Part shown: positions 6,703 to 47,873 of the stretch, one piece after another | How positions within the stretch are numbered: the stretch's first letter is position 1 | How the letters are laid out: every line of letters starts with the position of its first letter | From: Heptranchias perlo | Taxonomy: Eukaryota | Reading direction: 5' to 3' | DNA: 64,000 nt | Assembly (NCBI RefSeq): GCF_035084215.1 | Contig: NC_090361.1 | Coordinates: 2,108,001-2,172,000 of the forward strand | The notes under the pieces: model-generated | Databases searched by the model: none | The model's input: only the letters and a program-made list of their open reading frames with translations | Told to the model about the DNA's origin: nothing | Made by a program: the position numbers and the translations under genes

Positions 6703-6785
6703 TTTCAGGGATTAGATACAAAGCGAACGACAACATCCGCGTTATGGGGAAAGGAGGGTCCCGCCCTCCCTCACCCTCCCCCGGC

Positions 6786-7216: not shown

Positions 7217-7289
7217 CAGGCAGGCCTCCCCCGACAGCCCCCCCCACAGGGCAATCCGCATTAAAGGGGATCCATAATCCTGTAAATAA

Positions 7290-11976: not shown

Positions 11977-17745
<5,769 letters not shown>

Positions 17746-17984: not shown

Positions 17985-18412
17985 TGTGAATATTTACACA
18001 CGGTCCCTGAGTGTGAGTGTGTGAATATTTACACACGGTCCCTGAGTGTGAGTGTGTGAATATTTACACACGGTCCCTGAGTGAGTGTGTGAATATTTAC
18101 ACAAGGTCCCTGAGTGTGAGTGTGTGAATATTTACACACGGTCCCTGAGTGTGAGTGTGTGAATATTTACACAAGGTCCCTGAGTGTGAGTGTGTGAATA
18201 TTTACACAAGGTCCCTGAGTGTGAGTGTGTGAATATTTACACAAGGTCCCTGAGTGTGAGTGTGTGAATATTTACACAAGGTCCCTGAGTGTGAATATTT
18301 ACACACGGTCCCTGGGTGTGAGTGTGTGAATATTTACACAAGGTCCCTGGGTGTGTGAATATTTGCACACAGAGTCCCTGGGGGTGTGTGTGAATATTTA
18401 CACAGGGTCCCT
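17985..18412. repeat. 35-bp minisatellite, ~13 copies, upstream of FDX2
   Basis: Unit GTGAATATTTACACA(A/C)GGTCCCTGAGTGTGAGTGT. Confidence 0.97.
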
Positions 18413-19716
18413 GCCCTATAAAGTTTGAAAAGCACTGTAGCCTATTGCTTGAGATTTGCCAAAATTGTGGATAGGTTTGAGTTGTGTATATTTATATTGA
18501 GAATGTTGTGTCATGGATTCCTGCTGTCTCCTTGCAGTGCTCGCCTTCACTGGCCAAGGGCACGAACCTGAAACTGCTCCCAGGCCCATCAAACAACAGT
18601 CTAAAAGCACCTTTACACAACAGGAGCTCAATTCAGCTGCACCAGCATAACAGAAGGTTGGCATTGGCCGTCAGCAGTTGATGGTAACTGTTGTATTTTT
18701 ATTATACACAAGATGGCGATAGAATGGGGAATGACTGAAGAAAATGACTCCTCAGACTGACCAGAACCTGCATCGTGATTGTTGACATAGCAAAAGTGAA
18801 TGGGAAAAGTTGAGAGCAATTTACAATGGGAAAAGTTGCCAGAAATGCACCTTATAGGAAATGAACTTGAAGACTATCTGCACAATCTTAGACATTTAAT
18901 TGAATGCAATTTGCACATTCCTCTCCCCTCCAAGTTAGCTGTGGGACCAGCTCTTGTGGACAGCAAGCTGCTCACCAAAGACAAACTTTTCTTTCATCAT
19001 TTCAATTTTCTCCCTTTCACACCTGAAGGCTCAGAATCCTGTTTGGAGGCCTCTGTAGTCAAACCCTATGTTACAGCCTGTGCAGGAATCCCAGGATGTC
19101 CCCAAGGCAATCAGATTTCTGTGTGTATTGACGTACGAAGATGTTATTTGTGTGCGTGTGGATGCGTTTTCTGCAATAGCACTATTTTAATTGAGGTAGC
19201 AAACAATGTTTCACAAGTTAATTGAACTACAATTTTAGCAGGTTGAGAGACCACAGGGCACCTCAGCTGAGCCAGACTCACACTTTACATACACGCACTG
19301 AGCAGCAAGTGACTGGACAGCGATCAGGAGCAGGAACCAAGGCTGATTGCTTCCCCACTCCAGCCCCAATGTGTCCAGGGCTCACGTGCTGCTCCAAGTG
19401 AGATCAGCTAACTTGGTTCAGAGCAACGGCTCTGACCAGGGACAGTCTCAGGTCTGTGCGGCACAGTTCCACATCTGACAGTATGTTTATCAACTGGACT
19501 ATCAGGGGTCAGAGTAGAATTGAACAGCACTTTGATTCAACTCAAAGCTAGGAACAGCCGCATCAGATTAAGACAGTCAGTATTCTCTCTTCTGTGCTCA
19601 GAAAACTGTACGCAATAATAATGAAGATCTATATAAAAAGGACATTGGCAGTGACCAGGCAAATTTTAAAAAAGTTTTAAAGAAAACAAGCAACAGAATT
19701 AAGAGCAATTTCGAAC

Positions 19717-22864: not shown

Positions 22865-23011
22865 CTAAAATATCCTCTTCCTCTTCAGGTAAGAGTCAGC
22901 GTAGTGGCCGCCCAGGCCTTGCGAATGCTGGCCAATATAGCCTCCCTCTGGGCTGGGCTCGGGTGATGGGATCAGGTGAGAAGCAGCACGCTTGTGACCA
23001 ATGAGTGGAGT
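22865..23011 (-). CDS. RAVER1: RAVER1 exon 17 (last coding, C-terminal NLS)
   Basis: [48 protein letters not shown]. Confidence 0.97.
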
Positions 23012-26000
23012 CTGGAACAGAAAGAATTATCATCTGGAGTCCGATGTTCAACCAACCCTCCCCCTCTCCACTCCCTCAAACTTTCAACCTTCACTGATTA
23101 CAAATTACCAATATGAAGTCCTCATCTGGAGCATATTATGGTTTGGAGCTCCATCGGGCATCAAGTTTGCAAGAGATAATACTGGATCCAAGGAATCGAA
23201 ATTGCAAATATAAAACCCTGGTGTAGGGATATACTTCTAGGGGTTTTCTAGCATGTTTTGGAAACATTGCATTCAGCAGGTCTGCCAGTGACCATTCCAT
23301 TTTTCGGGTTTTGCTCCAGATATTTTCCCCTTGGGTTCAGCACTCAGTGAATGAGCCAGCATTGCCCACAGCCTACTCAATATCTTAGTAACTTGTAGTG
23401 AGCCCAGGGGACAAACAGAAAACCTTCAACACTAGTTCCCTGGTTAATTGACGTGCTCTCACTTAATCTTCCTGGATTTGTCACTCACTGCTGCCACAAT
23501 CGATACCAGCCAATTCAGCACAGACGAACCCGGTCTGTATGACTGGCATTAAGTGGTGTATTTACCAGAGAAAGTTCACATTCTCCACCCCTTCCCTTTT
23601 TATAAAAGGAAAGATATTTTTCTGCCTTTTCATGAACTTCACGACATCCCTGACCAAAGCGAGGGTAAGTCACCTCCTCCTTCCAGGTGTAGAGTGTAGC
23701 CCTGGTAACTTCCCTACCGATGGTAATTGGCTGGGTTTGACACTCTGCCATTCCACGAGGACATGGCTGGGATCTGCAGCCCTACATATGGATGACTCGT
23801 CCCAAAACAGTCCTTAATTAAATACCCATTGAGTGACTGAGTTTAATTCCTCCTTCAGTGGGTTTCAAGGAAAACACGATCTAGTCTGCAAGTCAAATGC
23901 TTGAATTAGTGTGAAGTGATTTCTACCTGTTTATTCAGGATCCCCAGAATCTCAAATCACTGCCTATTTCACAGACAATGCTCCACAAATCCATATTATT
24001 GTGGTTATAATGTAGTCTGTATAGGCACAATGCAGACACGCAACATAAATAGAAATAAACAGAGTCAAAGACCTACGAGAACAGTTACCTTCAGCATGCA
24101 GCCTGGTGGGGAGCTGGAAGGCCGAGCACCTAGAAGTCCTGCCCCGGAGCTCAGCAGTGGATTTAACTGCAACAGAGCAGACGACAGTCACAACTCCAAC
24201 TCGCATAACGTCAGATTCATTTCCTACCGTGACACCAATTATTCCGTAATTCAAGGATTCTGAACACTGAATCGTCGGCCACCTTCCTTCCATAAAAGGC
24301 AGCAAAACCCTTCTCCCTCCCCACACCCAACATTCTGCCGACAAACCCTCTCTGAATCATCAGCCAACCACCAGAAGACAAATGCAGAAAAGTGCTCAGA
24401 TTCTCTCAGGTGAAAAGTAAACCTCACTCATTGAGAGGGGTAACGGATTATCGTAAAAAGGAGAACATTTACAGGTCAGCCATGAAACATGACCGCGCCC
24501 AGAAAAATCTCATGGTTAGTGGGATTTTGCTTTGCACAAATTGTCTGCCACATTTGCCTACGTGGTCTACAAAGCGATTCATTGTACGCGAAGCACTTTG
24601 AGATGTTTGAAGACTGTTTATAGCACCACAAAAATGCACATCCTGCTTGGTCTGGTGATACAATTCACTTTAGTACCAATGTGTGGTGCTAGAGGCACAA
24701 GAGAAAGGATTGTACCAGTGATTCTCCACACTTAGCAAGGTCGACGTAGCAGGGTGTTTCCCCACAAGGACAGGTGGACAGTCCTCCCTCCCTTTCTCAA
24801 ACCACCAACTCTTGCTGAGGTACACCTTCATGTAGACTGGTACTAGAAGGGCCATTCATCACGTGTTAGCCACGACACTGATGGCTGATTTGACTGTGGA
24901 GGGCAGCAGTCGAGCCTGATTCTATCCTCAGTTACACGAACACCCTTTACAGCAGGGATCACTGGTCACAGATCACAAGTGGGAACCCTGGATGATTTGC
25001 CCGTCCCTAGCCTGGGACCTAGAACCCAATCGTAGTGCCCTAGCTGAGATCAGCTAACTCAGCTTGGAATAGGGGGAAAAAAAAAATCAAACCTGGAAGA
25101 CTGAATATTAAAAGGATCTGAAGCACTCAGACCTCATACAACCCACAGGGCAATTGTAGAGCATTCTGAGCCAAAACACACTACCTGCACAATTAGAGAA
25201 CGTTGTGCAGCCCTAGAAAAATTTTTGATCAGCAAGGGTGTCAAAGGATATGGGGAAAGGGCGGGAAAGTGGAGCTGAGGTAAAAATCAGATCAGCCATG
25301 ATCTCATTAAATGGCGGAGCAGGCTCGAGGGGCCGAATGGCCTACTCCTGCTCCTATCTCTTATGGTCTTATGGGTGAAGATCAGCCCTGGATATCTGTT
25401 AAAGAAAGTGCGCCATAATGCATTCTGCTGTTATTGTTGCTCTACCTTGGTGGAGTAGCCCTGTCGGAGTCCTGCTCTTAAGCCACTAGAGAAATAGGAT
25501 GTGGGAGAGCCGGAGTACAGTGGAGGTGCAGCAGGTTCCAAATCATTGTAGCCACATGGAGTTGATCGCTTAAACAAGGAACAGATAGAGTATTAGCAAT
25601 CCTACACTTTAAACTTCTACTTACATTCAACTGACTGAAAGTCATACAAACCCCAGAACAGTCCAGGAGAAACAGCCAGAAACCCTGGCTGGTCTGCCTC
25701 CACTATTTCCCTGTTTCTTTCTCTCTCTCTCTCTCTCGAGGTGCATGCCAGGGGGCAATTTTAGCAGCACTGGCCACCTTTTGATGCATCGGCCAAGTGG
25801 CCATTCGTGTATAAACCCGGACTGTTAGTGCTGGCAGGCTATTTGATCATGGACTGCACTGCAGCCGAGCATGATCTCAACTTCATCTGAAATACACACA
25901 GATTCCCCATTACAGTCACTGGATAGGGACTGGGAGTGAAATCCCTGACTGATTCCCCCGCCAATCCCCACCTTGAGGACAAAGAGACCATTTGGAGAAC

Positions 26001-29000
26001 CCCAAATACCTCCCCTCTGAGCTGAGCAAACACACCAAAGACCAGGGATCGACCTGGAGCAGGGTCTGTATGGTTCTGTATGCTGCATTTTCTCATCTGA
26101 TTGCTAACTTTTACTAAACTGGCCCACTCCAATGTTCTATGCCAAACATTGAAGCTTGAAATTTTACTTTCTTAATTAACAATCGTGGCCAAGTCTTGCA
26201 AAGGAACTGTCCCCGACCTGCTTCACCAAGCTTTTGGTCACCAATCCTAATGTCCTTTGGCTCTGTCAATTTTTGTCTGTTTACGCTCCTGTGAAATGCC
26301 TTGGGATGTTTTGCTATGTTAAAAGTGCTATATAAATGCAAGTTGTTGTACTAATCTCAGTGTATTAACTTGAAGGGGTCTTTATTCTAATCCTCTACTT
26401 TCTTTACCTCACTTCGGTCAGATCCGTATCCTCCAAGTCCATGGTCCCGGGGCAGTGGGTATCGCTCCAGCTCCCTTTCCTAACAAAGAAAGTCACAGTT
26501 AGCTTGGTTTTTCCTGACAATATTTTCCCCTCTAAAGACCATCAACTCCTTTCTGGGGCACCAAATAACAGATTCCACTGGCACCCCATAACTTGTCCAA
26601 CTGACTATTATAGACAGCAGGTGCTTATTCGAATACGCAGTGCATCTTAACCGAGCCCAGTTCCATCTTCACCAGTCACTTTCCAGCAGCAGTTGTTGGA
26701 CAGCAATCACTATTGGGAATCTATGCATGATCTTTAACCCTTCCTGGCTCAGTGTTGCTGAAGCAGACTATAGTTGCCCAAACCCTGCCTGCCCGAGATC
26801 AGCAAACTCAACACAGGCTGGCGACTGAACTGGAAAGGTTCGAGTTTGCATGGCTCAGTGCTGCTGCACTTGGCAGTAGTGATTGCTGACTCTGCCACTG
26901 CACCGTATCATTCAGATGCAGTGTACCTGGAATTATACTTAGTGAAAGGAGCAGTAATGACTTGCGGCTGAATCTAGTAAGGAACAGTCCCTGGCGAAGA
27001 GTCAGATACTGATCAGTTAGTACGTTACCTTGAATGGTTTATTCTAATCAATTCCTTTGTAAGACTTACCTCGATTCTTTCACGTCCGTACCCCCGAAGT
27101 CCTCCTAGGCCAGTGTCACGTGGCAGCGAGTATCGCTCCAGCTCCCTTTCCTAGCCAGAAACAAACCTCAAAGTCAGACCATTCATTTCACTGTAGAAAC
27201 AATTTTTCTTGTCAAGGCCCTTTTCTGGTGTGACATTCCACAGTTACCAGCTGGCACCTCACTCAGGTGCCCATTACACACTCGTCAGTCTCAACAAGCG
27301 ACGGCACAGCATATTCAACCTTCACAGCATCAAAGCCAAGTACAATCCCTTTGCGCATGGGACACAGACCAGCAGCACAAACCCTGGCTAATACTGGTCC
27401 CCCCCAGCCTAGGGCACCGAGATTAACTGTTGATTCCAAACTACTGCCCTGGCTGAGATGAGTTAACTCAGTACAGTCTGGAGGCGGAATCGAAGGACGT
27501 CTGGCCTGTATTACTCAGCTCCACACCACACCAAGTATCAGGAGAGTTCTGACTGCACTATACCTCACTGCTAGATCGACATGGCCATTTGGCCCAACCT
27601 AGCTTATCTGTCCAAGAACCTACAGTCCCCAAGCACCCAGCTGTTTCAAAGGATTCCAGGGCTTTTGCCTCCACGAGATGTCTAATGCTCCCTTTCCTTT
27701 ATAAGATTTACCTCGTTTCTGTCACGACTGTATCCTCGAAGCCCAAGGCCAGGATCACGTGATGGTGGGTATCGCTCCATCTCTCTTTCCTGATAAAATA
27801 AAATTAAAGTTAACTCAAAATATATTGTCAGTTTTCTGCTCTCCCCTTTGAGGAGGTTGAATTTCTGTTGGGGTTCTGTTAGTCACCCTTCTGTGCGAGT
27901 CTCAACAGTAAATGCTGGAAATCTATTCTACCTCGATAAGCAGCACAGCCAAACCAAACCCTGCCCTCACCCGATACCTACACTTTCCAGCAGCAAATTT
28001 GTGCAGCAGATCCCACAAACAGTAAAGAGACAAATGAGCAGTTAACCTGAGGGATAAATGTTGGGCAGGACATCAAGAGAACTACCCTGCTTTATTTCAA
28101 ATTAGTGCCATGGGATCTTTTCATCCACTCAAGAGGACAACTAAGACAATGGTTTAACGTTTCATCTAAAAGTCGGCACCTCCAACCATGCAGCACCCTC
28201 TCAATACAGCAGTGAAGTACCCCAGTGCATTATAAAAGGTCTCAGAACATATCTTCTGGCAATATATTCCAAAATTCTACATTTTTTTTTTAAAAAGCGC
28301 TTTTCCACATTAATGTAAAATTGGAAGTGACCAACCCAGCTGGTGTCCCATTATTCCCAGTATCTTGTTGGCTTATGTGTTATTTCAATTGTCAGTATTC
28401 AACGTCATTTCCCATTTCAGTATTTGCTGTAAACAAACCGATTACCCAGTAGACCAGTGCCCTAAACTTGTAGGAAACGATAGAGGCTCGAAATGAGTGT
28501 TGGCAACATTAGCGGACAAACACCACCACTTCAGGTGTTTGTCCACTAATATTACCGTCTACAATTTCTAGCCTTGCTGTAAAAAGGATTCAGAAGGACG
28601 ACTGCCTGCTGTACTTTATTACAGCAGCATATTCTAGAAAAGGGACACGCTCAATTGCATTAAAACCCCATCATGGTGTTGCAAACTGGCAACATAAAAT
28701 ACATCCCTAACATACCTGTCCATAGTCCCTGTAAGACTGATTGTAATTGTCGTAGCTTTCAAAATTGCCATAACCCGACTGACTGCTGCCAGACTCTGGA
28801 TAGTCACTGATGCCAGATCCCTGTTGCATTCTGGAGCTGGAACTGGGGTAGTTTCCCAGAAGGCCAGTATTATGGCTATAGGACATTGAGTTGCTGGCAT
28901 TGGCTGTCAAGAAGAAACAACATTTTCAGGGCTAAAATGCAATATGCAGCACCGTAACATGCTGCCACGTAACTGTGTTGTGAGCTTTGATGCAGATATT

Positions 29001-32000
29001 TAAGACACCATGTTTAGCAAGGAAAATGATAGCTCAGTGTTTAAAAGGAAATGTACAAATCAGATTCACCATAACTTATTAGATCTCCTAAAGGAGGAAA
29101 TGAAACACAATAGGTTAAAATCTACCAAGAAAAGCTTCACAGAGTATACATTTAATGAGTCATCACATTCCTAATATGATGTAAACAATTGAAGCAAGTG
29201 ATTTGTCACGGCAAAATAGACAGATATTGTGAGGCAGTTACAGTATCTCACACCCTTGCATAGCTCGGTCATCCAGCAATCGCCATGCTGGCCTCTAACT
29301 GCTCAGCCCCTGGAGCTGTGCACTCAGGCGAATACTCTACACATTGACCAAGTAATTTGTAACACTACTTGCCTGTGGACCTTGAAATAAAGTCATACCT
29401 CTCGGTCAACACATTATGCTACACACTCTTCATATGTTTTTCTATTAACTGAGAATCAACACAGCAAAAGCTGAAAAGGAACTCTTCACTTCTCCCAACT
29501 TGTGGGCAGCCAGCACAGCTCTTCGATGGGCCATTCTGCACTACAAGCAAGATCTAGGCTCACACCCACCACAAGCAGTTTACAAATTCTGACCAATTTT
29601 CCAGTTCCCATTGACATTACACAGTCACTGACTGAAGTGTTTAAGAACCAGTAACAGTATCCAATGAGGGAAAGTAGACTTTGAACGTCAGTTGAGGCTG
29701 GGTTGCAGTTTGGTTTTTCTTTGATTGAATTCTCTCCATACCAGACAAAGTTCCCCATGATGGGGTGGGCAGGCAACTCCATTACCATCCACTGGGAGGT
29801 GCTCAAGTGCTGCAAGAACAAGTGAGGCGCAGCAGAGCAAAGTGAATAGAGTTTCACCAAGTTACACAGTGTGAATACACAGACCACACGGTCCAGGGAG
29901 GAAGTGGAGGCAGATAGTGTCGGCAAACAACGGGATAGATGTGTGTCAGGGAAAGGGATTTGGGAGTGGAGAGAGAGCATGGTATTGTGGAAGCAGCCAG
30001 CTCTGTGTCGACCTATTTAACCAAAAATTCACCCTCATTCCTCTATGGAGGCACGGGTCAGGTCAGGGCCAAGAGGGAAATCACGGCACTAATCCATATC
30101 TTCTCACTTCATGGCACATGATTTATGTCAATGAACTTCCGTCAAAGCTGGGGTCAGGAATCACCCCTCTGATTGGGGGTTCAGTAGATTGCAGTTCAAG
30201 CCAACAGGATTTCACTCCTTGAGTTTCACATTCATCAGACTATTTTAGGAAAGAAATTGCAACATTTACTACATTACCCCTTCCCTACACCCTTCAAACA
30301 CAAGTAAAATTAAGCTAACAGACTGCTCCTTACCAGGCAGGTTAACAGGGAACACACTTCGCAAATTGAGATATGGGTTCTGAGGCATCCGAAAGTCTTT
30401 TGGTGGTTCTCCCAACAGAGACGGCTGCAATACAAGATGCGGTAGTACATTATTTGTAGTGCAGTGTATCCCCTCCACGTTCTCACCACACCCTGTCTGC
30501 ACTATCCCAGCGAAAAGGGTGGCTAAATGTCCTACTCCGAGGCCTCCTCCAATCCCATTGCCTGAAACACACAAATTTGCTCTTCCTCCCTCTTTATGGA
30601 GACACGTGTGGGACTGCAGATGGAAACTCGCCCTCTAACACGGTGCTGGAACTCCACTGCGCTGCACTGTCCCAAAGTAGAATAAAGGTTCAAGAGATCA
30701 GGATACTATTTATTTTAGATACCTCCAAAATATGGTGTATCCTTTAGTTACCATCAGAAAAGCTGGTTAGCATTACCCCATTTTACATTCATTGTAGCTC
30801 TTCAAACACTTAAAGCAGCACAGTCTGGTTGGCAGTCCACCATACACCATCAGCAGGGAAGAAATGCAGATTCCATCTCCCACTCTGCTCCACTATTTGG
30901 GGGAGGAAATGTTGGGGGCAGGGGGGTCCACATACTCTCCTGCAGGAAGAGGGCACTCTCTCACACTATGTCAGCTCAATACTGTCAGTCAGAGAACCCC
31001 CCCCACTCCTGGTCACAAGCAAATGGTCTGTGGACCCTAAGAAACCAAAGACAAAGGGGAGTCAGTGATCTCAATCAAATTGCTTCATAACCAGGGCCTT
31101 CAGTAAATAAACTGAGGGAGCCTCAGTCTAGCTCACTGTAGACACAGATTTGGCACCAATGCAGACAATTTTGGCCAGATACAAAGTGCAAACAGAATCA
31201 AGAAACTGATGCACTTTAGTAGCGGCTGGGCTGTTTAAGGTTGAAACTCAGTTGTATGATTGGAGCAATGATTCCATTCAGAAAGTGATAGTCTTGCTAG
31301 TCTTAATGGCTTTATCCTCGTCCTAAAAATTCTTACCTTCTTCCTTCCCCGAGTATTTCAAAAGAGAGAAAGTTGCAAACCTAGCCATGCAATGTCCCTC
31401 TAACATTCCTACCTGTAACTTTTCTCTGTACCCTTTCTAATGCGAGATCATCTTTCTTGTGGTGACCACGATCAAGCATAGTGTTCCAAAAATATAGTTT
31501 GAACAGTGCATTGTAAAACTCAAGTATAACTTCATTTTATTCAACTACGGTACAGATCATGGACAAAAACCTTAGATAGGAACAGTACAAGTTTAAATTA
31601 CTCTGAGGGCTCAGTTAATATTCACAATCCATGAACTAATCTAAACACTCTGCTTGCATTTTACTCACTCCAAATTCTAATTTTGCAATGGTTAAAAACA
31701 CAAAAAATGACTAAACAATTAGCTGCAAGGAATTGATGAGTCCTGATAATACTGTATAAAAACAGAAAGCCCAGTGTGACTCCTGTAAACTATTTAAATC
31801 TTGACCTCTCACCCCTGATGTGGCCGAGCCAGTCTCCACTTGCGACATGTTTTGATTCCTCTGTTTCTGCAAATCACTGAGCACAGAGCCCAGAATAGAT
31901 GTGGGGATTCCTTGCAGAGGAGCCGGGGTAACTGGAGGAGGGCTAACTTGCCGCGATCGAGACGGATTCTCCATCATTCCCTGCATGTCTGCTGGCATTT

Positions 32001-35000
32001 GTCCAAGATACTGCTGGGATGGCATCGGCCCCATGGGCATCATAGGCGGCTTCATCTGCGCCTGTGCTATTTCAGAATTCAGTCCTGCAAGGGCCATAAA
32101 TGCTAATGGTGAGAAGATGGCTTAATTAAAATCAAGATTAAGAAGGAAACCCCGATTAAAACAAAGGTAAGTGTTGAATCAAATCATCCTCCACCAAGCC
32201 AGAATGTAACAGGGGAAGGTAGACTAAAGTGATGTCTATTGGTAATTGTAGTAATATAGCAGACATCAGACTTCTGCAATTCACCTCCATTGCTGTTTAA
32301 AAATCAATCTGCAATGTGCTACAGCACAATGCAGCAACAGAAGAGGCCAAGTCCTCTTGGCTTTTAAAGCATAACACATTCGCTCTATAATGGACAGGTG
32401 GGATACAACATCTCACTGATCGCAGCCTGGTTGATGGAAGGTGTCAACCTAAAGCCAATCCCTCAACCAAAGAGAAGCTGAGGAGAAAAAAAAGACACAA
32501 TCTTAAGTCTGCTCTTGTGGACCTCAATTTTGGCCATTGATGGAGATAGGCAGACAACTGGCATTATGGTTCCAAATCAATTCATGGCCAGAAGTGGTAT
32601 TTGGTAAAGAGAGAAAAATAAGATAGATATTAAAAAAAACACTCCATAGCTTCTAGTTATTACAACAGTTTGGATTAGAACAGTTGACATGGAAACATAT
32701 TGGGGATGCAAGGGCAAAGTGGGAATAGGTTCAGTGGTTCCTGAGACCGAAGCTGAGTTACAGAATTATACATACCTGTGGGCGATTCCCCAAGAAGTCC
32801 CTTTCCTGGTTGTGGAGGGGCTCCGAGCCCTATCGGGTTTTGCTGCAAAGCTGCAAGAGGAGATTCACCCAGAATCCCAGGCTTCTGTAAACATACACAC
32901 ATAGACAATACCGTTCTCTTATTTGAAGATGAAATGCTCAGTTTAATTGGTTACCGGGATAATGGATGCAGAAGTATTGCCTTCAATCTGATTCAAACGT
33001 ATGGCTGTGCAAATTACTAGAACACAGTGGAAAGTAGAACCCAAGTAAAAGGGAATTTCCAACAACTCCCCATCTCATTTATCTGACATAGAATCCCTCT
33101 TAGTTTTAGCCTCTAATCTCTCTCTTCACCCCCCCACCCCGCTCTGAATTTCACTTTTCTTTGCACCAAATATTCTTTTTCTCCTTCCTACATCTCCTTA
33201 TGTTGAAATTAAAATTATTTGCAGAGCCTCCTGCTCAACTCAATCTTTTGCAAATCATAACTGTGGGAAATCCTTAACCCTCGGTCTTCCTATTCATCCT
33301 ACATTCTTCAGTCTTTTAAAGCCCGAGCTTGGATCACCTAGTCATTAGCTCCCGATTTAACTCACCGATCCTTATCCTCCACCTTTTCCAAACACATTTG
33401 TATGCTACACCGTAAGCCTACTCCGACACCTGAGTCTCTCGCTCCATCATTTAAAAACATGATGCACAGCGACATCACAGAATGGTAAGAAGCAGGGGGA
33501 GGTGGGCTCTCCATAGTTGAATAACCCATCAATATTCACTGTCAAGGTTCCTATATGACGTTTCAAAGGGGAGCAAGGCCCATGAAACGGCAGCCTAGCA
33601 AGAAGGCAACGATATTCTGAATGATATCGGATGTCACTGATCTGCTCATCCTCATCAACTGATTTTATGCAGTCGGTCTTTTAATTTGGATTTCAGGAGA
33701 CTGACACCTGTGAACTCACATTTACACTGCTAAATCCAGCACACAGTTTCTTTCCCACTGCGAGTAGGATTTAGCGCAATATTAAGTGCCAGCTCATGGA
33801 CGCCAATGCCTTGGAATCTGAATTAAAACAGCATCAATGTAGAAGCAGCAACTGACTTGCAGCTCATTAATCCCTGTGAACTTTTCATCTTGCACACTTC
33901 ACTTGCTAAACTGGACTCAGTTTTTGCAAAGCCAGCTGATTATGGAGCAACGGTCATGGTGGGGGGGGGGCAACAAAGGCAAAGGGGGCATGGTATGAAA
34001 TGCATGGACAAACTAAGTGCAAATGGGGGGGGGGGGGGGGGGGTAGGGGATTAGAAGAATGGTGTTAACTGACACCATTCTGACTCAAAACACCAAGTAT
34101 TATTTCTAATACAGTTACAATAGGGAAAACTTCTTGGTAATGGAAAACAAGTGATGTGGGATTGGCGGGGGGAAGGGGGTGGGGAGAGAAGAGAAAGAGG
34201 GGGAGAAAAAGAGAAGAGACGGGCAAAATTCCACAGACACAGAATTATGGAGCAGGAGAGGCCCTGACTGCAGTTAACGTGACACGTGGCCTGATATCCG
34301 TCACTAGTGGGGTACTACGCCACTATCAGTTGTTCTCCTGCCAGAAGTTTTCACAAAAGTCAGTTTCACATCATTGAAGGCAGAGCTTGCCCAGACTGCA
34401 CAGCGAAACCTTTTTAGAATTTGATTAAAGTCATGTACATTTTTCTTTGAGTATGAGTAAATTGCACCTTCGATGTGAAATGGATTCTCAATTTGTACAA
34501 GTAGAGGGAGAAACAGATAAAGGAGGCAGAGTAAGATTAAAAATGAAGGGGGGGGGAGTGGGGGGTGGAGAAAAGAGAAAAGCAGAAAGCAAATCATTTC
34601 ACATGCCAGGCAACCCATTGTATTTCAATGGAATCCTGCACAACCCTGCAAAAGTCATGGAAGCAATTTTTTTTCTTGTATGAATGACAATGTGTGATCC
34701 ATACAATTTCACTGACTCAAGATCAGAATAATTTGACTTTAATTTTTTCTGTTCAATAAAACTGAATATATTTTCAACAGCATAAGTGATTACAGTGACT
34801 ATTACTCACCATTACTGACCAACAGCCACAATGAGCCCTTTCTCAGTCATAGTAATAATTGATACTTGGTTTCTTCAACTTTTCTTCCAATTATTTGTAC
34901 CAAGTAAGCCAAACTATCATCCACTTAATCCGAATAAAATTGTGCAGCCAGGCTAAAATTAATGTGATCAGTACGTACTGTAAATAAAATAAAGGCAAAC

Positions 35001-38000
35001 CCTAACACGACAATCTATTTGTTGTGGACTTACATTGAGGAATGCCTGGTTCTCCTTATTTTGCATCAGCTGGGTCCGAACCAGGTTCTGCAGAAAAACT
35101 GGGTTCCCAAGCAAAGCATTCTAGGACAGAACAAGTGTAGGGGGAAAATGGGGAGCGGCAGAGAATGAAAGATCAGTCATTACATGAACAGATAAACAGA
35201 AGAGTGCAAGAAAAATAGTAAAAGCTATCAAATTCCATAGCGAGAAGAAAAAAAAGACACCTTATTTAATAGGTCCCAATAAACTATTCACCATCCTATG
35301 AATTCTGAAAGCAAGAGACAGAGCTATACAGGATATCATTCATATCCATTAACCAACTTTTTACATGACTGAACTAAAGGGGGAGGAGAAGGAGAACTTT
35401 AAACGATATATCCCCATCTGAAACTATATAGGGGTGCTGTCAGGTAAAACAGAGTTTCATTCTTCCTCTCCATTCCAGCAACTTGCTACAGTCCTGTCAT
35501 GTTGGCCCTCAAGGTAACCATTCAACTGATGTGTGAGCTTGTCAGCTGCTGAGTGTTAGTTTTAGTGCTGCACTGTATAAAGCAGTCCATCGTAACACTC
35601 CTGGACTCCCCAACGGCTTGGCGGTATATCCAATACCTGATGGAGTACTGAGCTATAAAGACAAGGATACAGGTTCGATACCTCGTCTGTGCAGGGCGAG
35701 CAACAGAAATGCTGCATTCCGCATCTCACACACACAGGATCAAGTGCTGCTGTGATGCCCCCCATTGTTAAGCAACCTGGTAACATTCACTGTCCAGGTT
35801 CACACTTGATGAACAGCCACACGGACAGTGGAACTACACCCAGTGAGAGTCACTAACCAAGAAAGGAGAGGAAAACTGGAGGCGAAAAGAGACAGACAAT
35901 CAGGGTTGCAGTGTTCTGGTTCCTGGGCAGCACCGGACACATGCCACCTGGGATCAAATTATTCCAGGGAGGTGGAAACAACTTTCCCCTGACAACTGTT
36001 AAGGGTTGAGAGTGAACTGCGTTTGGGCATTCTGGACCAGATTCCTCGAGGAAATTAAATCCACATCAGAGCAGTGGCAGTCTGAACACAGTGATCACAC
36101 TAATCCACTCAGTAGTACCACAGTTATTATACCACAATTCAAAATAATTCTGTAACTGTAACAGACATCTGCGTTCACTCCACTGGTTTACAGAACTACA
36201 GCAATTATAAAAAGATAGATGGGTGGGTGCCTTCAGAGACGTGCAGAAATGTGGAGAAGTTTCAACTATAAATTTATTGGGTCATTCACAGCACAATTAC
36301 TTAAGGCCGACTTGACTTTTGTAATCAATGGAATGACAGGGGGCTGATTGTGTTGCTATGCAATCAGTCACACATCACTTGCATGAGAAAGCCCTTGTGT
36401 AAGGCTCCAAGGTGGCTCTAACTTCACCATGTGGAAGAAGTTGTGCAATCTCATTGTATTTATGATAAGGATAGACAGCAAGCCAGCAGAAAAAAAACAC
36501 ATTGATATGCTTGGGAAAGATGCTTAGAGGTCAACGTACGAGCAGGCGAGTGCTCACTACTGCATGTGACCTAGAAGTTTGATTCTAATTACTGGATGTA
36601 AAGTAGGGAGAAAAAGATCAACGCTGATGGTGCATAGGTTGGGGTGGGGGGAGGGGAGAAAAAAAGTTAGGAGAGAAAAAGTATAAACAGGCCAGCTTGA
36701 TGCCTTATCAAGTTATAGTCAAGCAACTGGGTCTTCATTAATTTAATTGAAGTGAACAATCAAATACTTGCATCATCTAAAGTAAAAACATTTGCCTATA
36801 GAAGCCCCATTGCACACACCATACAACTGCTGATACACTAGGGTTATGGTGCATACTCTGGGTTTTAAAGTTCTATACTAACATATACAACCTGCCATTC
36901 TCCCACAGACTAACACCCACCAGAACATGCTCATTACAATGAGGCAATAATGACAGAATGTCTGGGTGACTGATGTGTTTCAATAGTGTTGGTTTTGACA
37001 CCAGCTCATGGCGAGATGTCAAAGGCACAGGGGTGACCCAAACCCACATTCACTAAAGTCTTGAAATTCATTCAAAATGTTAGTTGTATACAACTAATAC
37101 TTTCCAATTGAGAGTACAGACTACAGTGCAAGTGGCACACCTGAGACAGGAGAATATTTCTGGAATCATCCTTCTAAGAAAGCTTTCCCTCACTGATTTG
37201 GTAGATAAGTGCATGCAGGCCACAATGTCCCAGGTTCAATTGCCAGTCTGTATGAATTAGTTGATCTCAGCCAGACTCAGCCCCCTTCCACAAGGGAGGA
37301 GCAACAGAACACAAGTCAGGGCTGCCGGACCCAGTCAGTGTCCAGTGACCATGCTGAAAAGTGCGTGTCCAGTCAGTCCAGAATGGGGCTCAGCTGTGAT
37401 GCTCTCCACAGTCAAATACTCTGCCATCACTCACCATCTAGGCTCACACCTGTCGACTGGTGCGTCCAGAAACCGTGTCTTGGTATGACTTCACAAAGAG
37501 GGGAGGAAATTGGGGGAAGGGGAGCCATTGTAGACTGACATAGTAGAGCCATTACAACATTTAACCTCAGAACGAACCAATCTCCAAGTACTCAAAGAAA
37601 TTTTCCACTCCATTAAAGAACTCACAAATAAAGGTTAGAAACAATGCTGCACACTTTTTAAAAAAAAAGTAGCTGCAAAATGTAGGAAGTCTGCAAGGAA
37701 GGGAAAGCAAAAGCAAGTAATGGAATGGAAAATGTATCCATTTTGGTACAGTACATCCTACACATGCTAGGTACATGCTGCTAGTTCTGTTGTGTAATTT
37801 CTGCACAACACTGATTTGCAAGACGACCAACATACAATGAGCTCATACACTTCATCTGACAATCCACAAGGCCGCTGCATACTGAATTAAATATTTTAAA
37901 TTTCCTAAAGTGCACGTACCATGGTCGACCGCTTTTAGCCTACTGCATTGAAATCACATTCTAAGAAGAGTAGTTCCCGGAGGGTTTAGATTAATATGAT

Positions 38001-41000
38001 TGGATTTGGATTAATGACAGGGGAGAGGAGTCGACTACATCATACTGTCACACCCTAAATATCAAAAGGAAGAGTTGCCACATTTTATCAGCACTGTCCA
38101 ATCCCATCCCAGTTTGTTTTTGGAGAGAGAACAGCAAACGCTGGAGATGCCCAGATCATTCAGCATCTGAAAAAGGTACGTTTAACATTTCAGACGGGTT
38201 CCTTCAGGACACAGTTAAGACGGATTATGTGTATTCCTCTGATGGGTCACACCTGAAACATTTAACCCATCTTTCTCATTCGGATACTTATCAACCTGCT
38301 GGGCATCTTGTGTCAGATTTCCAGTATTCATTCAAGTTTTTTCTTTTTATCTCCATTTGGCAACAAGATACCAAACTCAGCACTGTCAAGCCAATGGGCA
38401 GGGAGCAACATGTCCCATTTGTACCATATTATAGAGGGGCTTAGTTTACAAACAATCTGGACAGAAATCTGCAGGACAATCTTCCCACAGTTAAATATAG
38501 AATCATAGAAGTTACAACATGGAAACAGGCCCTTCGGCCCAACATGTCCATGTCGCCCAGTTTATACCACTAAGCTAGTCCCAATTGCCTGCACTTGGCC
38601 CATATCCCTCTATACCCATCTTACCCATGTAACTGTCCAAATGCTTTTTAAAAGACAAAATTGTACCCGCCTCTACTACTGCCTCTGGCAGCTCGTTCCA
38701 GACACTCACCACCCTTTGAGTGAAAAAATTGCCCCTCTGGACCCTTTTGTATCTCTCCCCTCTCACCTTAAATCTGTGCCCCCTCGTTATAGACTCCCCT
38801 ACCTTTGGGAAAAGATTTTGACTATCGACCTTATCTATGCCCCTCATTATTTTATAGACTTCTATAAGATCACCCCTTAACCTCCTACTCTCCAGGGAAA
38901 AAAGTCCCAGTCTGTCTAACCTCTCCCTGTAAGTCAAACCATCAAGCCCCGGTAGCATCCTAGTAAATCTTTTCTGCACTCTTTCTAGTTTAATAATATC
39001 CTTTCTATAATAGGGTGACCAGAACTGTACACAGTATTCCAAGTGTGGCCTTACTAATGTCTTGTACAACTTCAACAAGACATCCCAACTCCTGTATTCA
39101 ATGTTCTGACCAATGAAACCAAGCATGCCGAATGCCTTCTTCACCACCCTATCCACCTGTGACTCCACTTTCAAGGAGCTATGAACCTGTACTCCTAGAT
39201 CTCTTTGTTCTATAACTCTCCCCAACGCCCTACCATTAACGGAGTAGGTCCTGGCCCGATTCGATCTACCAAAATGCATCACCTCACATTTATCTAAATT
39301 AAACTCCATCTGCCATTCATCGGCCCACTGGCCCAATTTATCAAGATCCCGTTGCAATCCTAGATAACCTTCTTCACTGTCCACAATGCCATCAATCTTA
39401 GTGTCATCTGTAAACTTACTAACCATGCCTCCTAAATTCTCATCCAAATCATTAATATAAATAACAAATAACAGCAGACCCAGCACCGATCCCTGAGGCA
39501 CACCGCTGGACACAGGCCTCCAGTTTGAAAAACAACCCTCTACAACCACCCTCTGTCTTCTGTCGTCAAGCCAATTTTGTATCCAATTGGCTACCTCACC
39601 TTGGATCCCGTGAGATCTAACCTTATGTAACAACCTACCATGCGGTACCTTGTCAAAGGCTTTGCTGAAGTCCATGTAGACCACATCTACTGCACAGCCC
39701 TCATCTATCTTCTTGGTTACCCCTTCAAAAAACTCAATCAAATTCGTGAGACATGATTTTCCTCTCACAAAACCATGCTGACTGTTCCTAATTAGTCCCT
39801 GCCTCTCCAAATGCCTGTAGATCCTGTCCCTCAGAATACCCTCTAACAACTTACCCACTACAGATGTCAGGCTCACCGGTCTGTAGTTCCCAGGCTTTTC
39901 CCTGCCGCCCTTCTTAAACGAAGGCACAACATTTGCTACCCTCCAATCTTCAGGCACCTCACCTGTAACGGTGGATGATTCAAATATCTCTGCTAGGGGA
40001 CCCGCAATTTCCTCCCGAACTTCCCATAACGTCCTGGGATACATTTCATCAGGTCCCGGAGATTTATCTACCTTGATGCGCGTTAAGACTTCCAGCACCT
40101 CCCTCTCTGTAATATGTACACTCCTCAAGACATCACTATTTATTTCCCCAAGTTCCCTAACATCCAAGCCTTTCTCAACCGTAAATACCGATGTGAAATA
40201 TTCATTCAGGATCTCACCCATCTCTTGTGGTTCCGCACATAGATGACCTTGTTGATCCTTAAGAGGCCCTACTCTCTCCCTAGTTACTCTTTTGCCCTTT
40301 ATGTATTTGTAGAAGCTCTTTGGATTCTCCTTTGCCTTATCTGCCAAAGCAATCTCATGTCCCCTTTTTGCCCTCCTGATTTCTCTCTTAACTCTACTCC
40401 GGCAATCTCTATACTCTTCAAGGGATCCACTTGATCCCAGCTGTCTATGCATGTCATATGCCTCCTTCTTCTTTCTGACTAGGGCCTCAATCTCCCGAGT
40501 CATCCAAGGTTCCCTACTTCTACCAGCCTTGCCCTTCACTTTATAAGGAATGTGCTTACCCTGAACCCTGGTTAACACACTTTTGAAAGCCTCCCACTTA
40601 CCAGACGTCCCTTTGCCTGCCAACAGACTCTCCCAATCAACTTCTGAAAGTTCCTGTCCAATACCATCAAAATTGGCCTTTCCCCAATTTAGAATTTTAA
40701 CTTTTGGGCCAGACCCATCATTCTCCATTGCTATCTTAAAACTAATGGAATTATGATCACTGGTCCCAAAGTGATCCCTCACTAACACTTCTGTCACCTG
40801 CCCTTCCTTATTTCCCAAGAGGAGGTCAAGTTTTATATATTCTTATTAGAAAAGCATTACAGCACATTAGACTAACTGAGTCACAGAACTGATGAATTAT
40901 CCAGTTTATGCATATCCATTCCATCATGCAGCAACTAGCCAACTTGAGTGTAACTGTTTTTCCTCCCTTCTGGTGGATATGCAGCACTGATCACTGCATT

Positions 41001-44000
41001 GGTCCAGACCATCATTCTGTGAGCTGGAGTTAATATTTTGCACTTGGCCTGTAACCATTAATCAGCCATTTCAAGCATAGCAGAGCAACGTGAAAACTAT
41101 GGGGAGGTGATTGGATTACTGAAAAACAAGTTCCATTTTGTTGTTCTTTTAAAAATTTGAAACCAAGTTAAATGAAATCTGTGACAAACCAATATGGATG
41201 CAGAATTGCAGAGCTGCACATTTCCACTGATATCACAAGCATCACTTTTACACTCTGAAGCACAGGAACAAGGCAGCACCGACAGTACCAGCAACTGCAC
41301 AAAGCTCTCTTAAGGACAATTAGGACTATAGGAAAAATCTGATGAAACTATGGTAGAAGTTGGTGCTTAAGTTCCGTGACTTCCCGTAACACTGATCTCT
41401 GCCAGCACTGGCATTTAAAGTTGCAACATCCCTGCAAGACAATAGCACAGGTTTGCTCTTCTGGGAGAGGGGATGGAAGGGAAGAGGAGGAAAAAAGAGC
41501 AATGTTATCACCGAAAACACTAAGCCTTCAAAGACAAATGTAATTCCTTCAGTTGCCATTAAATAGCTTCTACGGAAGGTTCAAAGCAAACACTCAACTC
41601 CCCACTAGCCTGTTTACAATTACATACATGTGTATTAGGGGAATTACCTGGGCTTGGGCTGGGTTTTGGCTCTGTAAGACCAATTGCAAGAGGGCTGCAC
41701 TTAAACCAGGATTCCCCAGCAGGGGCATTGATGGCGCAGCTCCCAGAATTCCTAAGGAAAACAAAACATCTTGGTTAGCACCCTTGTTCAGATTTTCCAC
41801 AGCTAAAGTTACTTATTCATTAATGAAATGCTTTCATATATTTGGAAATTAGACGACTGCATCAAAAATTATTAAAACCTATTTTATAGTAATTTATAAA
41901 GAAAGTTTTGGGAGCACAAGATGCACTCCAGGCTGTCAAAAATATAGAAAAGCTTCCTTTTCTGACCTGGAGCACCTGGCATTTGCAAACTTTCCACATC
42001 ATTCAGAAATTAAACTACCACCTAGAAGGACAAGGGCAGCAGACGCATGGGAACATCATCTCCTCCACGTTCCCCTTGAAGTCACACACCATCCCGATTT
42101 GGACATATATCACTGTTCCTTCATCGTCGCTGGGTCAAAATCCTGGAACTCCCTACCAAACAGCACTGTGGGAGCATTTTCACCACACAAACTGCAGCAG
42201 TTCAAGGCAGCAGCTCACAACCACTTTCTCAAGGGCAACTAGGAATGGGCAATAAATGTCGGCCTTGATAGCGTCGCCCATATCCCAAGAACTAATTTTT
42301 TTTTTTAAATCGACAAGGAGTACAGATTCATAGCTCCTTGAAAGTGGAGTCACAGGTGGATAGGGTGGTGAAGAAGGCATTCGGCATGCTTGGTTTCATT
42401 GGTCAGAACAATGAATACAGGAGTTGGGATGTCTTGTTGAAGTTGTACAAGACATTAGTACGGCCACACTTGGAATACTGTGTACAGTTCTGGTCACCCT
42501 ATTATAGAAAGGATATTATTAAACTAGAAAGAGTGCAGAAAAGATTTACTAGGATGCTACCGGGACTTGATGGTTTGACTTATAGGGAGAGGTTGGATAG
42601 ACGGAGACTTTTTTCCCTGGAGAGTAGGAGGTTAAGGGGTGATCTTATAGAAGTCTATAAAATAATGAGGGGCATAGATAAGGTAGATAGTCAAAATCTT
42701 TTCCCAAAGGTAGGGGAGTCTATAACGAGGGGGCATAGATTTAAGGTGAGAGGGGAGAGATACAAAAGGGTCCAGAGGGGCAATTTTTTCACTCAAAGGG
42801 TGGTGAGTGTCTGGAACGAGCTGCCAGAGGCAGTAGTAGAGGCGGGTACAATTTTGTCTTTTAAAAAGCATTTGGACAGTTACATGGGTAAGATGGGTAT
42901 AGAGGGATATGGGCCAAGTGCAGGCAATTGGGACTAGCTTAGTGGTATAAACTGGGCGACATGGACATGTTGGGCCGAAGGGCCTGTTTCCATGTTGTAA
43001 ACTTCTATGATTCTAAGCCCTATTTAAACCACTTCCCAACAAAGTACCTGGCCTGAGCAGTGGGCTTAAAAGGGAAAGGCCAGGTTAGCAGCTAATCAAT
43101 TCTACCCCAAATCAGCCATGCACAACACCATGGTAGACTACCAAGGATAAAAGATGAGCTGCAGCATTGAACATGCAATAATAAAAATACACTTGGAAAG
43201 CTTTAAAATAGAGAAAAGGCAAGGAGTTGGGATTGAAATGCTAGAACCGTCATGTCTAAAAAGGTGAAGTATGCTCGATCGGCCTACTCACGATCTTACG
43301 TTCCCATGACACGGTACTTTTGGTTTTTTTTGGTGGGGGGGGGGTGGTGGCGGCGTCAGGAAGAGGAAAGTTTGAGACTTGTAGAAAATAAAAATTGATT
43401 TAATCTGCATTAAAAATCTTGCTATTGCACACATAGCCTGTCCACAATCTTCTCTTCCTGTTCTCGTGATTTCTGGTTGTGCCTTTTATGTCAACATATA
43501 ACATTGAAAGTGCCTAAGTAATCAGTTACAATGGGAATTCCCTGTGTAAACAGCCTCTGGTGACAGTGATAGTTACAGACTGTGGCCACTTGTAACCTGT
43601 ACCACTGTACCCTGACATATTGCAAGCAACCCCAAGGGAGATACACTAGTTAGGAATAAACACGTCCATCACTGTGGCTCATGTTGGGCCTTGAACCTCA
43701 CCCTGCTGTGCGCCTGTGCCTCCGTGAATTAATGGGTTTAGGAGAAGCTGCAGCGTCGCTGGATTATTGAGGCTGTTCAGAATCTGCACAGGATTCGGTT
43801 CTGGGAGAAGGCCCTTTCCACGGTTCATTGCCTAGGACAAGAATTAAAACAAATAACGGCAAGATTCAACGACTAACTTAACAGTTATTAGAAGCAAGCT
43901 TTGCACTTAGCGAAATACTTCATGGAACATTCATAGGGATTGTATTGGAGTCTTCCCTTCGTAACTGGCATGATTTCTCTTTCCCCCATCCCCCAAAACG

Positions 44001-47000
44001 GGAAATGCAGATGTAAGGAAATCCAGTTCCACAAGCACTGTCAACCCTCTGATACCTTATCTAACGGCCACGTGAGTGAAGACAGTATTTCAACAGGCTA
44101 TTAAATCACGAGGGCATTGTGGTGAAGCAACGTCTCCCTGATCTATAGTATTATCCGTTTTACTCCAATCTGCCATCACTTAAAGCCAGAATGTTAGTGT
44201 TTATGGACTCACCATAGCTTGAGCTGCTATCAGGGCAGGAAGCATGCTCCGCCCTGGGGGTCCAGGTGCACAGAACGAGACCCGAACGTGGTTCCCGCCA
44301 ACCCACAGCCCGTCCATCTCCTGCTGCACTTCCTCCGCATCATCCGCAGCTTCGTATTCAAGGACTGCGAAGCCTCGGAATTGGCCATCAGGTCCCTGCG
44401 CCAGCTACACAAGAGAGGGGTGCAGTCCACAAGAGATTGAGATGGGGTAAGGGGGACAAAAAAAGGAAAGAAAAGCAGACAAATGTAAGTAGATGATCAG
44501 TAATAAACACAATATTCAGTGACAGGTGGTTTGCTTCACTGAAATTCCTAGGGAAAATGATGCAATATTTATCAGCAGGACAATGCATAAAAGCAGTTTA
44601 TTCCACCAGGTGCTGAAGTACATAACCATTTACAATTTGCTAGTGATTGTGACAAGTTCTCCCATCTCCCCCCCAAAAGCACAGTCTTGCTGGGCTTCAG
44701 TTGCACAGGTGCTGCCTGCCCACTGGCCATTCTTTACGTACGAGCTAGGCTGTCAGTCTATTTGACTGTGGAGCATCATAGCAAGCCTGATACGGTCCTT
44801 ATCCAAGTGGAGGCCTTGGCTGATGTTTAACCCTTCTCCGAGCCCAAAGGCCAGCTGCAACCTCAGCAGATTGAGAGCACAAAGTACGTGGTGAAAAGGT
44901 CCTAGAGAGGTGCTGATAAGAATAGGTACTGTTCCCAGCATGTGTCATCCAACTCATCACAGGCCAGGGATTAAAAACGGGAAGATAATTGGTCTGCATG
45001 GCTCAGACTCATCCTGGACTCTGCATTGGTCAGCTGAGCCAGACACCGAGGAGATTAATTCTTGATATAAAAATCGAATCCAGAGCAGTTTCTATGACAG
45101 CAACAAATGCATTTATAAACTGTATTGCGATGATCAAACTAGAAATTCAAACTTATGCTCCTTTTCATGTGGGAAAGTTTGAAATCCCTCTACAAATGTC
45201 ACAATCACTCCTTCCTGAATCCAATACCATCATTTTAATCTTCAATTCTTCACACAGAATTTCTTGTGTTGATGAAAGCTAGCCTGATGTGGCAGTCCAT
45301 CGTGTGAGATGTGGACAGTGGAAAGTGACATTAGTTTTTTTTTGTAGCTAATATAAATGAGTTTTTGTTCACTGCCAACTTAAAATACATCAACTCTACC
45401 CCATAACTAAAGAGAAAGGAGGGGGGATATCAAATTGATGAGTTTGTTTGTAAACTGTAATGCTTAGAGGGACAGGCTGAAACAAACATCCTGTTGCCAA
45501 GTGGCACATAACCAGGACAGGAATGAGGGAAATTGCCATTATCCCAAATCCTATAAAAGGAGTTACAGCACCTATTCTAATCAGCACCTCTCAAGGACCT
45601 TTTTCACACTGTACTTCATGCTCTAAATCTGCTCTTTGAGGCAAGCCTGAGAACAGAGATTGTGTGGAGAGATCCCATTCCCTGGAACTCCCTCCTTAAA
45701 CCTCTCCGCCTTTAACAACCTCTTCCAAACCACATCTCTCTGACCAAGCTTTCAGTCACCACTCCTATTCTCGCCCATCCTGGCTCAGCGTCTTTTTTTA
45801 CCAAAGTCCAATTGAGGTGCCGTGGAGGGGTTCCTTTTGATAAATACAAACTGTTATTGTAGAGACGATCCCCCTGATATTCCACACCAGTGATATGAAT
45901 GTGGACAGTCAGCTGTAGCAAACAATCCCCATTTATGTTACACACTTATATCAAGGGAAAAGGTACATGACGTACTCGTGCCCAGCCAGTCTCTTGCCAA
46001 TAGTGAAACAACAGAAAACACCAACATTCAACTAAAAATGAGTTTCTTTATAGCATTTAGTGATGTCAGGCAATTCAGCAGAAATTAGTTCTTCAAATTC
46101 AACCCACCCCATATCACAAGATGGCCTATAGTAAATCAGTATTAAAGTGACATCTAGCTGTCCAGCAACCAAAACCATTGCGCAAGAGATGGGGCTTGAA
46201 ATAATTGCTGCAAAACCACCAGTGGAAGTGTCACTGGTCTACAGTAAACAATGTGAAAAAAAATCATATTGTTCTTCCAGCAAACAATATAAACCGGCAT
46301 TCGATGAACACTAACTTGCTGGAAGTGGTTTATAAGAAGCCTGCACAAACTCTGCATGTTAGAGCAGTGTGTCAAGACCCTACGGACATGTACCAACTGA
46401 TCCATTAGTCGAGTCAGTGGTCCTGGTAAAGTATTGTCTGAGTTTAACAGACTTAGTTTCTTGCCCTAGCGGTTCCAGTCGTTCACTATTATTTGTCTTA
46501 TTTTCTTCGCTGTATCTACAGCTGAACGATGGCATACCCAGCTCTGCTATCCCACCTGACAGATACGATAAATCTGTACTGATTTATAATTACTGGATCA
46601 TTGTGGGGTAATCCCCCAACCCACCAAACCTTCCCACCGCCTGATACACTATTTCGATGACAGGAAGTGGAGAGCAGACTGCATTTTATGTTACAAATTA
46701 GAGTTCTAAAACAGCACTGGAATAGAAACATCAGTACAAGATAAATCACTTGAGAATCAAAATGCAACATCTGTGCCTCTTTCCATACATGATTAAAAGT
46801 TTGAAATGTGTGCATAAATATTTAAAATAATCACTCATCAATTACCAAACAAGTGCTGAGCATCTGGAGTGGTCAGCAAGGCCTAAAGGTGGAAGGGGGG
46901 GGGGGCGGTGGCTTTTGAGAGGTAGAATAGAAGGAAACTGAAGACATACATCGAGTTAACTTTGTAAGAGCTGGTCAAATAGCAGCATTTTCCCCCCCAA

Positions 47001-47815
47001 CACTCAGATGTTCCTCAGTCACATTCCCAGGTAATGTGTGGTGAGTGGGACTGATCTATAATAATTTAAAGGGAAGGAAGAAAGAAAACAAGAGCAACAA
47101 CCCTTGACCCTGAATAGATCAGAATGTGCAGTGAATCTAACAAATACAGTGACGATTGCTCTCTGGTTTAAAAAGAAAAGCCCCCCCAGACTAGTCTTGC
47201 ATTTAACATTGCCCACTTCCCATAACCATTACTCTCATACCTGACAGTAGGTTGGCTGATGGACACAACTGAAGGCCTGACTGAGGGCCTGCAGGTCTTT
47301 ATAATCATGTGGGAGTTTGTCCACGCACAGGCACTTGGAATGGATGAGGTCAAGAGTCAGTTGATTCACATCTGTCCAGTGAACATACAGGGTTCGTGTA
47401 CCCAGCTGTTTTCCGAGAAGTTCCGATTTAGCACGGGCAGCAGAGTCCTTCTTCATGTATTCCACAAAACCATACCCTTTTGAGTGTCCAGAAAACTCAC
47501 TGTAGACAAGGAAACACCGCTCCAGGTTCCCAAAAGGCCGCACCAGCTCTTCAAACTGCTGCTGACTGAAGGAGAGAGGCAGGTTTGCAATGCACAGCAG
47601 AGCATCAGTGGGCTGCAGCTGAACTGAAATCTCTCGGTCCCGTAGTGTTGATTGGTGAAATTTCTCAATGGCAGAGTTTGCTTGGTCCCCGTTCAATAAA
47701 GTGACAAAAGCTAGAAATAAACAAGAAAAGGAAAGACTAATTTAACTGACTTTATCCAACCTTATCAATGCCACAGTACAGTTCTGTGGCTGTCAGCAGC
47801 TCTTGCCACATTGAC

Positions 47816-47873
<58 letters not shown>

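Follow-up and report, generated by a model that had tools for sequence, protein, structure and literature searches.

Three short exons that follow one another in the gene for the PTB co-repressor RAVER1 raise the question of whether they are copies of one exon and, if they are, whether transcripts carry them together, singly or in alternation. They lie in the window, by which we mean the whole 64,000-nucleotide stretch of Heptranchias perlo DNA under analysis (contig NC_090361.1, positions 2,108,001 to 2,172,000 of the forward strand). The original prediction had assigned them to RAVER1, and this gene call was borne out by the 100% identity of a window exon to the named RefSeq RAVER1 of H. perlo. 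The protein model XP_067829055.1 maps to 58633-22865 in 17 exons, and the last exon gives a RAVER1-type C-terminus, matching named RAVER1 records, unlike a RAVER2-like match from a marmot. The features of the gene that concern the triplet are as follows:

22865..58633, minus strand: coding span of RAVER1, 17 exons, with the 3' boundary of exon 6 approximate
30334..30424, minus strand: exon 10, encoding PRI3 (SLLGEPP), a PTB-binding motif of high affinity
28716..28903, minus strand: exon 11, Y/S/G-rich, phase 1-0, with an extra PRI-like motif (GLLGNYP)
27712..27789, minus strand: exon 12, copy 1 (78 nt, 26 aa, phase 0-0)
27070..27150, minus strand: exon 13, copy 2 (81 nt, 27 aa, phase 0-0)
26408..26479, minus strand: exon 14, copy 3 (72 nt, 24 aa, phase 0-0)
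25446..25568, minus strand: exon 15, phase 0-0, the first exon past the triplet
24089..24166, minus strand: exon 16, with the PRI4-position motif (GLLGARP)
22865..23011, minus strand: coding part of exon 17, the last, ending in KRKRIF and a stop

Pfam recognised three N-terminal RRM_1 stretches and nothing else, with the folded region at about residues 70-345, and AlphaFold2 confidence was low from residue 376 on. The triplet makes up residues 682-758 (77 residues) of XP_067829055.1, all three exons mapping at 100%, and lies in a region that is predicted to be disordered, as had been supposed (pLDDT 25-31 at residues 681-760). Three RRMs, PRI motifs, a long disordered C-terminus and the KRKRIF end are common to vertebrate RAVER1 and this locus. 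The triplet sits between PRI3 (SLLGEPP, residue 590) and the PRI4-position motif (GLLGARP, residue 809), both placed with a search pattern that we take to describe PRI motifs. In mouse Raver1, PRI3 is the high-affinity and PRI4 the low-affinity PTB site according to the available text of PMC3420021.

The extra PRI-like motif of exon 11 was found in 4/4 chondrichthyans scanned (as GLLGDYP in the chimaera) and in 0/4 bony vertebrates scanned, and is possibly an additional PTB site. Elsewhere in the gene, an exon of 87 nt (29 aa) at 35120-35034 on the minus strand is the sole difference named between the two H. perlo models and is also skipped in isoform models from sharks, sawfish, sturgeon, bichir, gar, lungfish, lizard and bird; judged by these models, it is a widely shared RAVER1 cassette exon. 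Two of the runs used below for splicing gave this exon no cover, and no weight was placed on that. The surrounding DNA holds long reverse-transcriptase-like open frames of LINE type (40842-38578, 13071-14939 and 53268-54644), two of them within RAVER1 introns; the frame at 53268-54644 has a GIY-YIG-like end and is presumably of Penelope type. GC-rich minisatellites with units of 43, 26-31, 41 and 35 nt occupy 3900-7221 and 17985-18413, and a run of N at ~17275-17459 marks an assembly gap of 185 bases close to where a neighbouring minus-strand gene begins (~17750).

The positions, lengths (78, 81 and 72 nt), peptides and phase 0-0 of the three exons were as the original prediction gave them, and all three carry the AG acceptors and the donors (exonic GAG followed by gtaa) that it described; the acceptor of copy 2 has its AG with a rather G-rich pyrimidine tract. 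The spacing, put earlier at ~640-670 nt, is 671 and 639 nt from start to start, and the introns around the copies (11-12, 12-13, 13-14 and 14-15) measure 926, 561, 590 and 839 nt. Pairwise DNA identity among the three copies is 75-79%, and the triplet is the only long family of direct repeats in the 24-31 kb part of the window. Two of the donor-side intron flanks matter here and below:

27020..27069, minus strand: donor-side flank of copy 2, with AATAAA at +27; its paralogue is the copy 3 flank
26355..26407, minus strand: donor-side flank of copy 3, with AATAAA at +22

Among the 105 pairs of donors in the gene, the flanks of copies 2 and 3 rank first in similarity (shuffle p=0.0005) and those of copies 1 and 2 rank fourth, a weak result (shuffle p=0.011), while the similarity of copies 1 and 3 in the same comparison is not significant (p=0.18); the acceptor flanks are borderline or non-significant (p=0.05, 0.10 and 0.88). 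The donor-side element once thought common to all the copies is thus shared by copies 2 and 3, weakly by copies 1 and 2, and not significantly by copies 1 and 3. The proposal of an in-frame duplication of exon plus flank was right, with the flank part established for one pair and suggested for another. Separately, introns 11 and 13 share a 15-nt match that was considered as a trace of duplication and rejected, being non-collinear with a second short match.

Evidence on splicing came from assembled contigs of two samples, covered by four of the eight runs listed. Rare variants are dropped in such contigs and 52 weaker joints lay beyond those listed, so that skipping in particular tissues may have escaped notice; the runs are not on record as RNA, and the contigs were taken as mRNA because GT-AG introns are skipped in them. 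Three runs of one sample each gave one contig in which exons 11 through 17 are linked by all consecutive GT-AG joints and which shows 0-1 differences from the window. A fourth run, from another organism and study, gave the same chain 11-12-13-14-15-16-17 with a diverged copy 1 (6 nt fewer, in frame, and two synonymous changes), one amino-acid change in copy 2 and one synonymous change in copy 3, as read by hand. The junctions 11-12-13-14-15, which the original prediction had proposed to count, are accordingly joined consecutively in both samples, and in the transcripts seen the copies are spliced in together and are not mutually exclusive. The tandem arrangement of homologous exons alike in length and phase, together with one predicted intronic stem, might have suggested a cluster in which one of the three exons enters each mRNA, as the original prediction had allowed; however, direct 12-13 and 13-14 joints in contigs of both samples contradict mutual exclusion, nearly all protein models hold the three together (see below), the 561 and 590 nt introns present no steric obstacle, and the frame is preserved when the copies are included together. 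We give such a cluster hardly any credence.

Protein models tell of the same co-inclusion. The full block of 76-86 aa is present in 57 of 59 elasmobranch models from 21 species, copy number being scored from block length and one skate cluster of 27 members being represented by the 15 among the matches listed. The other two each skip one copy: Chiloscyllium punctatum X2 is without copy 1 and Carcharodon X2 without copy 2. None of the 59 has one copy or none, and both H. perlo RefSeq models (XP_067829055.1 and XP_067829056.1) include all three, with no in-frame skip of a copy in either. The routine array of zero to three repeats that the original prediction put forward is unsupported by these counts (three copies in 57/59 models, two in 2/59), and the occasional skipping of a single copy is likely to be real but minor. 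A more regulated arrangement, in which copies are skipped singly by tissue or stage and the number of repeats is dosed, with an RNA stem maybe hiding the copy 2 donor, would suit the phase 0-0 of every copy and the two models that skip one; the unbroken full-inclusion contigs of both samples and the lack of any model with zero or one copy argue against it, and we consider it unlikely.

The stem invoked for such regulation involves one further feature:

26191..26209, minus strand: 19-nt intron site, complementary at 17/19 positions to the copy 2 donor flank (27067-27049), forming a predicted stem

The duplex of 27067-27049 with 26209-26191 has a predicted energy of -27.6 kcal/mol that 0/60 shuffles reach, and across the 37.6-kb gene just three inverted matches of this kind, itself included, join sites within 1.5 kb of each other; the donor pairing of copies 1 and 3 was no better than shuffles. 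The predicted stem could mask the copy 2 donor or loop out copy 3. As support for regulated skipping it is nevertheless offset by two other RAVER1 donors, for which the same test gives -27.0 and -28.4 kcal/mol, and by the position of the partner site ~860 nt downstream. The donor-side flanks listed earlier hold AATAAA 27 and 22 nt past the donors of copies 2 (~27043-27038) and 3 (~26386-26381) on the minus strand, and among the 15 donors scanned only these two are so followed. Since the flanks of copies 2 and 3 are paralogous, the pair counts as one event, and it could have arisen by chance; if intronic polyadenylation occurred at AATAAA, the C-terminal KRKRIF end would be removed.

Three copies were found in 21/21 elasmobranch species (13 sharks and 8 batoids), mostly of 24, 27 and 24 aa, with exon 12 (copy 1) at 24 aa in 17 of the 20 species other than H. 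perlo. In a tree of the modules built on 27 columns, all 63 elasmobranch modules fall into a single branch (100/99), as do the modules of copy 3 (96/97), while copies 1 group weakly (20/21) and copy 2 is not one branch; the copy class was recovered across the shark-batoid split for 61 of the 63 modules. The triplication is likely to have been one old stem-elasmobranch event of ~384-280 Ma, the bounding dates (384 and 280 Ma) being those given in the accessible portion of bioRxiv 10.64898/2026.02.13.705779. A recent, species-specific duplication was rejected, the three copies being present in all 21 elasmobranch species seen. The triplet is restricted by lineage, as the original prediction had it, with the qualification that the lineage takes in all elasmobranchs seen and that RefSeq models already include it. 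Between the window copies, dN/dS, for which a calculation had likewise been suggested, is 0.18-0.26 (dS 0.63-0.98, dN 0.14-0.17, over 24-26 codons per pair), and this value of ~0.2 indicates purifying selection on the copies.

These results bear on whether the triplet is a neutral accident that drift could fix because a disordered linker tolerates it, and that has been kept only through constraint on frame and general composition. Symmetric disordered exons duplicate readily, as described in the part of PMC3632108 that is available, one skippable copy suffices in most bony vertebrates, and lineages differ in copy number (1, 3 or 6), all of which would be in keeping with drift; however, three copies, mostly of the same three lengths, have been kept in 21/21 species for >250 million years with copy-specific residues, and dN/dS is low, so that we regard a purely neutral origin and retention as quite improbable. 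Variation within the clade was also seen: in Pristiophorus (sawshark) models copy 2 gains 5 aa through an alternative donor, the peptide resembling the start of the window's intron, and in skates (Amblyraja and Rhinoraja) an expanding run of ER dipeptides opens copy 1. A metagenome scan for orthologous DNA returned 270 pattern matches, of which 0 were confirmed.

The original prediction treated the repeat as one not known from mammalian Raver1. A reading in which mammals lack the module was rejected: one weakly similar, single-copy exon occupies the slot in mammals and in other bony vertebrates. In bony vertebrates the slot holds one segment of 23-27 aa, its bounds given by clean isoform deletions in Anolis and the axolotl. 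For 10 of 14 single-copy bony vertebrates, a hidden Markov model of the shark and ray modules peaked higher in the matching slot than anywhere else in the protein, and shuffle p<=0.05 was reached in 10/14, with scores of <=10 bits; the reverse model gave p<=0.05 for 18/21, 15/21 and 10/21 of copies 1, 2 and 3. The slot peak was also obtained in the coelacanth, Xenopus, Discoglossus, Ascaphus and gorilla, and the best peak fell outside the slot in three other frogs, salmonids and a bat skip isoform; no RAVER2 protein seen had a module peak above 1.3 bits. With scores this low, homology rests also on position, length and inferred phase besides sequence, and from these together we infer that the elasmobranch copies descend from the one exon of bony vertebrates, which is skipped at times. 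Of 131 scorable models, 11 cleanly lack that exon, with one further ambiguous (38 of 169 ids were not scorable for its presence), a count that lends some support to regulated skipping. A single exon was seen in mammals, reptiles, birds, amphibians, the coelacanth and ray-finned fishes, whereas elasmobranchs have three, with more Arg and Glu; the named matches included no record from a lamprey or hagfish.

Two further lineages depart from the single exon. In the African lungfish Protopterus annectens, residues 662-815 of RAVER1 X1 (XP_043940509.1) hold six tandem modules of 20-28 aa in the slot of the shark triplet, and one module (module 3 or module 5) is skipped in each of the RefSeq models X2 and X4, a likeness to the elasmobranch skip models that would also suit regulated skipping. 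The lungfish modules score up to 13 bits against the shark model (4/6 at p<=0.05), but they are rich in Lys, Ser and Tyr whereas the three of elasmobranchs are rich in Arg and Glu, and they fall outside the elasmobranch branch in the tree. Because the coelacanth, tetrapods and ray-finned fishes are single-copy, two separate gains are more parsimonious than a single gain followed by four or more losses, and the lungfish expansion is likely to have been independent, as far as one species can tell (no other lungfish was among the 120 matches listed). In the chimaera Callorhinchus milii, a tandem repeat of Tyr, Glu, Gln and Asp at about residues 590-685 of RAVER1 lies just upstream of a single diverged module, the one 27-aa candidate for the slot, which is not significant against the module model (p=0.15). 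A simple tie of these expansions to giant genomes is doubtful because the axolotl, whose genome is giant, is single-copy.

The linker after PRI3 measures 180-190 aa with 17-20 Tyr in four elasmobranchs and 114-130 aa with 3-10 Tyr in ten single-copy bony vertebrates, and Tyr in this linker numbers 23 in the lungfish and 28 in the chimaera. On the sequences compared, the linker has become Tyr-rich in three lineages, elasmobranchs, lungfish and chimaera. The PRI3-PRI4 linker might accordingly be seen as an evolutionary dial for sticker valence, raised convergently three times under selection for more multivalent RAVER1-PTB assemblies and tuned by tissue through skipping, a proposal to which we attach a low probability. 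If the three expansions did share a reason, they would offer a natural allelic series (1, 3 and 6 modules) relating repeat number to PTB co-repressor function.

The explanation that we favour, and think probable, is that a phase 0-0 exon was copied in tandem on one occasion, in the common ancestor of sharks and rays, and that its three copies, which are spliced in together, lengthen the disordered PRI3-PRI4 linker and add weak multivalent contacts. A symmetric exon in a disordered linker would duplicate without shifting the frame, and duplication by unequal crossing-over would have been tolerated because the exon is symmetric. The copies would then have been kept, as a rule all in the same mRNA, which makes the stretch after PRI3 ~60 aa longer with added Arg and Tyr, the 77-residue block being predicted to be disordered and made of Arg, Tyr, Gly and acidic residues; occasional skipping of a single copy may have been inherited from the ancestral exon. 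Arg and Tyr are typical weak-contact 'stickers', and the most likely effect of the added ones is a putative increase in the avidity or residence of RAVER1-PTB assemblies. Lengthening of a floppy, sticky linker is likely to be a more apt description than an either-or switch. A role in tuning condensates, raised in the original prediction, would be hypothetical. A tuning of perinucleolar compartments, suggested earlier, is weakened since human RAVER1 joins these compartments through its disordered region in a PTBP1-dependent manner and is dispensable for building them, according to the available text of PMC11039986. The locus offers a tidy, dated case of a skippable exon multiplied and retained in a conserved splicing regulator, and a marker for the shark and ray clade; it also indicates an overlooked small skippable exon in mammalian RAVER1.

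The triplet is real, annotated in RefSeq, old, clade-wide and made by an ordinary mechanism, and it is apparently unremarked: we found no description of the shark RAVER1 repeat among titles and the starts of abstracts of the top 5-25 papers listed per query, with few subscription papers covered. Compared with known kinds of sequence, the block, with 16 Arg, 0 Lys and a net charge per residue of -0.03, has the balanced charge (1:0.7 to 1:1.3) and the excess of Arg over Lys of arginine-enriched mixed-charge domains, which in the available text of bioRxiv 10.1101/771592 are defined by at least 60 aa and a fraction of charged residues of at least 0.7. Its best 60-aa window has a charged fraction of 0.48 (0.40-0.50 in 8 species), below that cut-off, so that the mixed-charge repeats of the original prediction fall short of the published definition and a reading as such a domain was rejected. 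Like the mixed-charge domains of nuclear speckles, the triplet exceeds 60 aa, is near-neutral, uses Arg without Lys and carries RE/RD dipeptides, but unlike them (bioRxiv 10.1101/771592) it contains much Gly, Tyr and Pro. The closer likeness in kind is to symmetric, disorder-coding tandem exons (PMC3632108), with which it shares co-included homologous neighbours, and from which its mechanism is no different: the copies are phase 0-0, neighbours are 75-79% identical and pLDDT is 25-31. Most tandem duplicated exons become constitutive (PMC8373072). The exons 4a/b/c of SLC12A1 and those of Drosophila Dscam1 (PMC8373072) likewise form a cluster of homologous exons, but those are mutually exclusive, whereas the three of RAVER1 are co-included.
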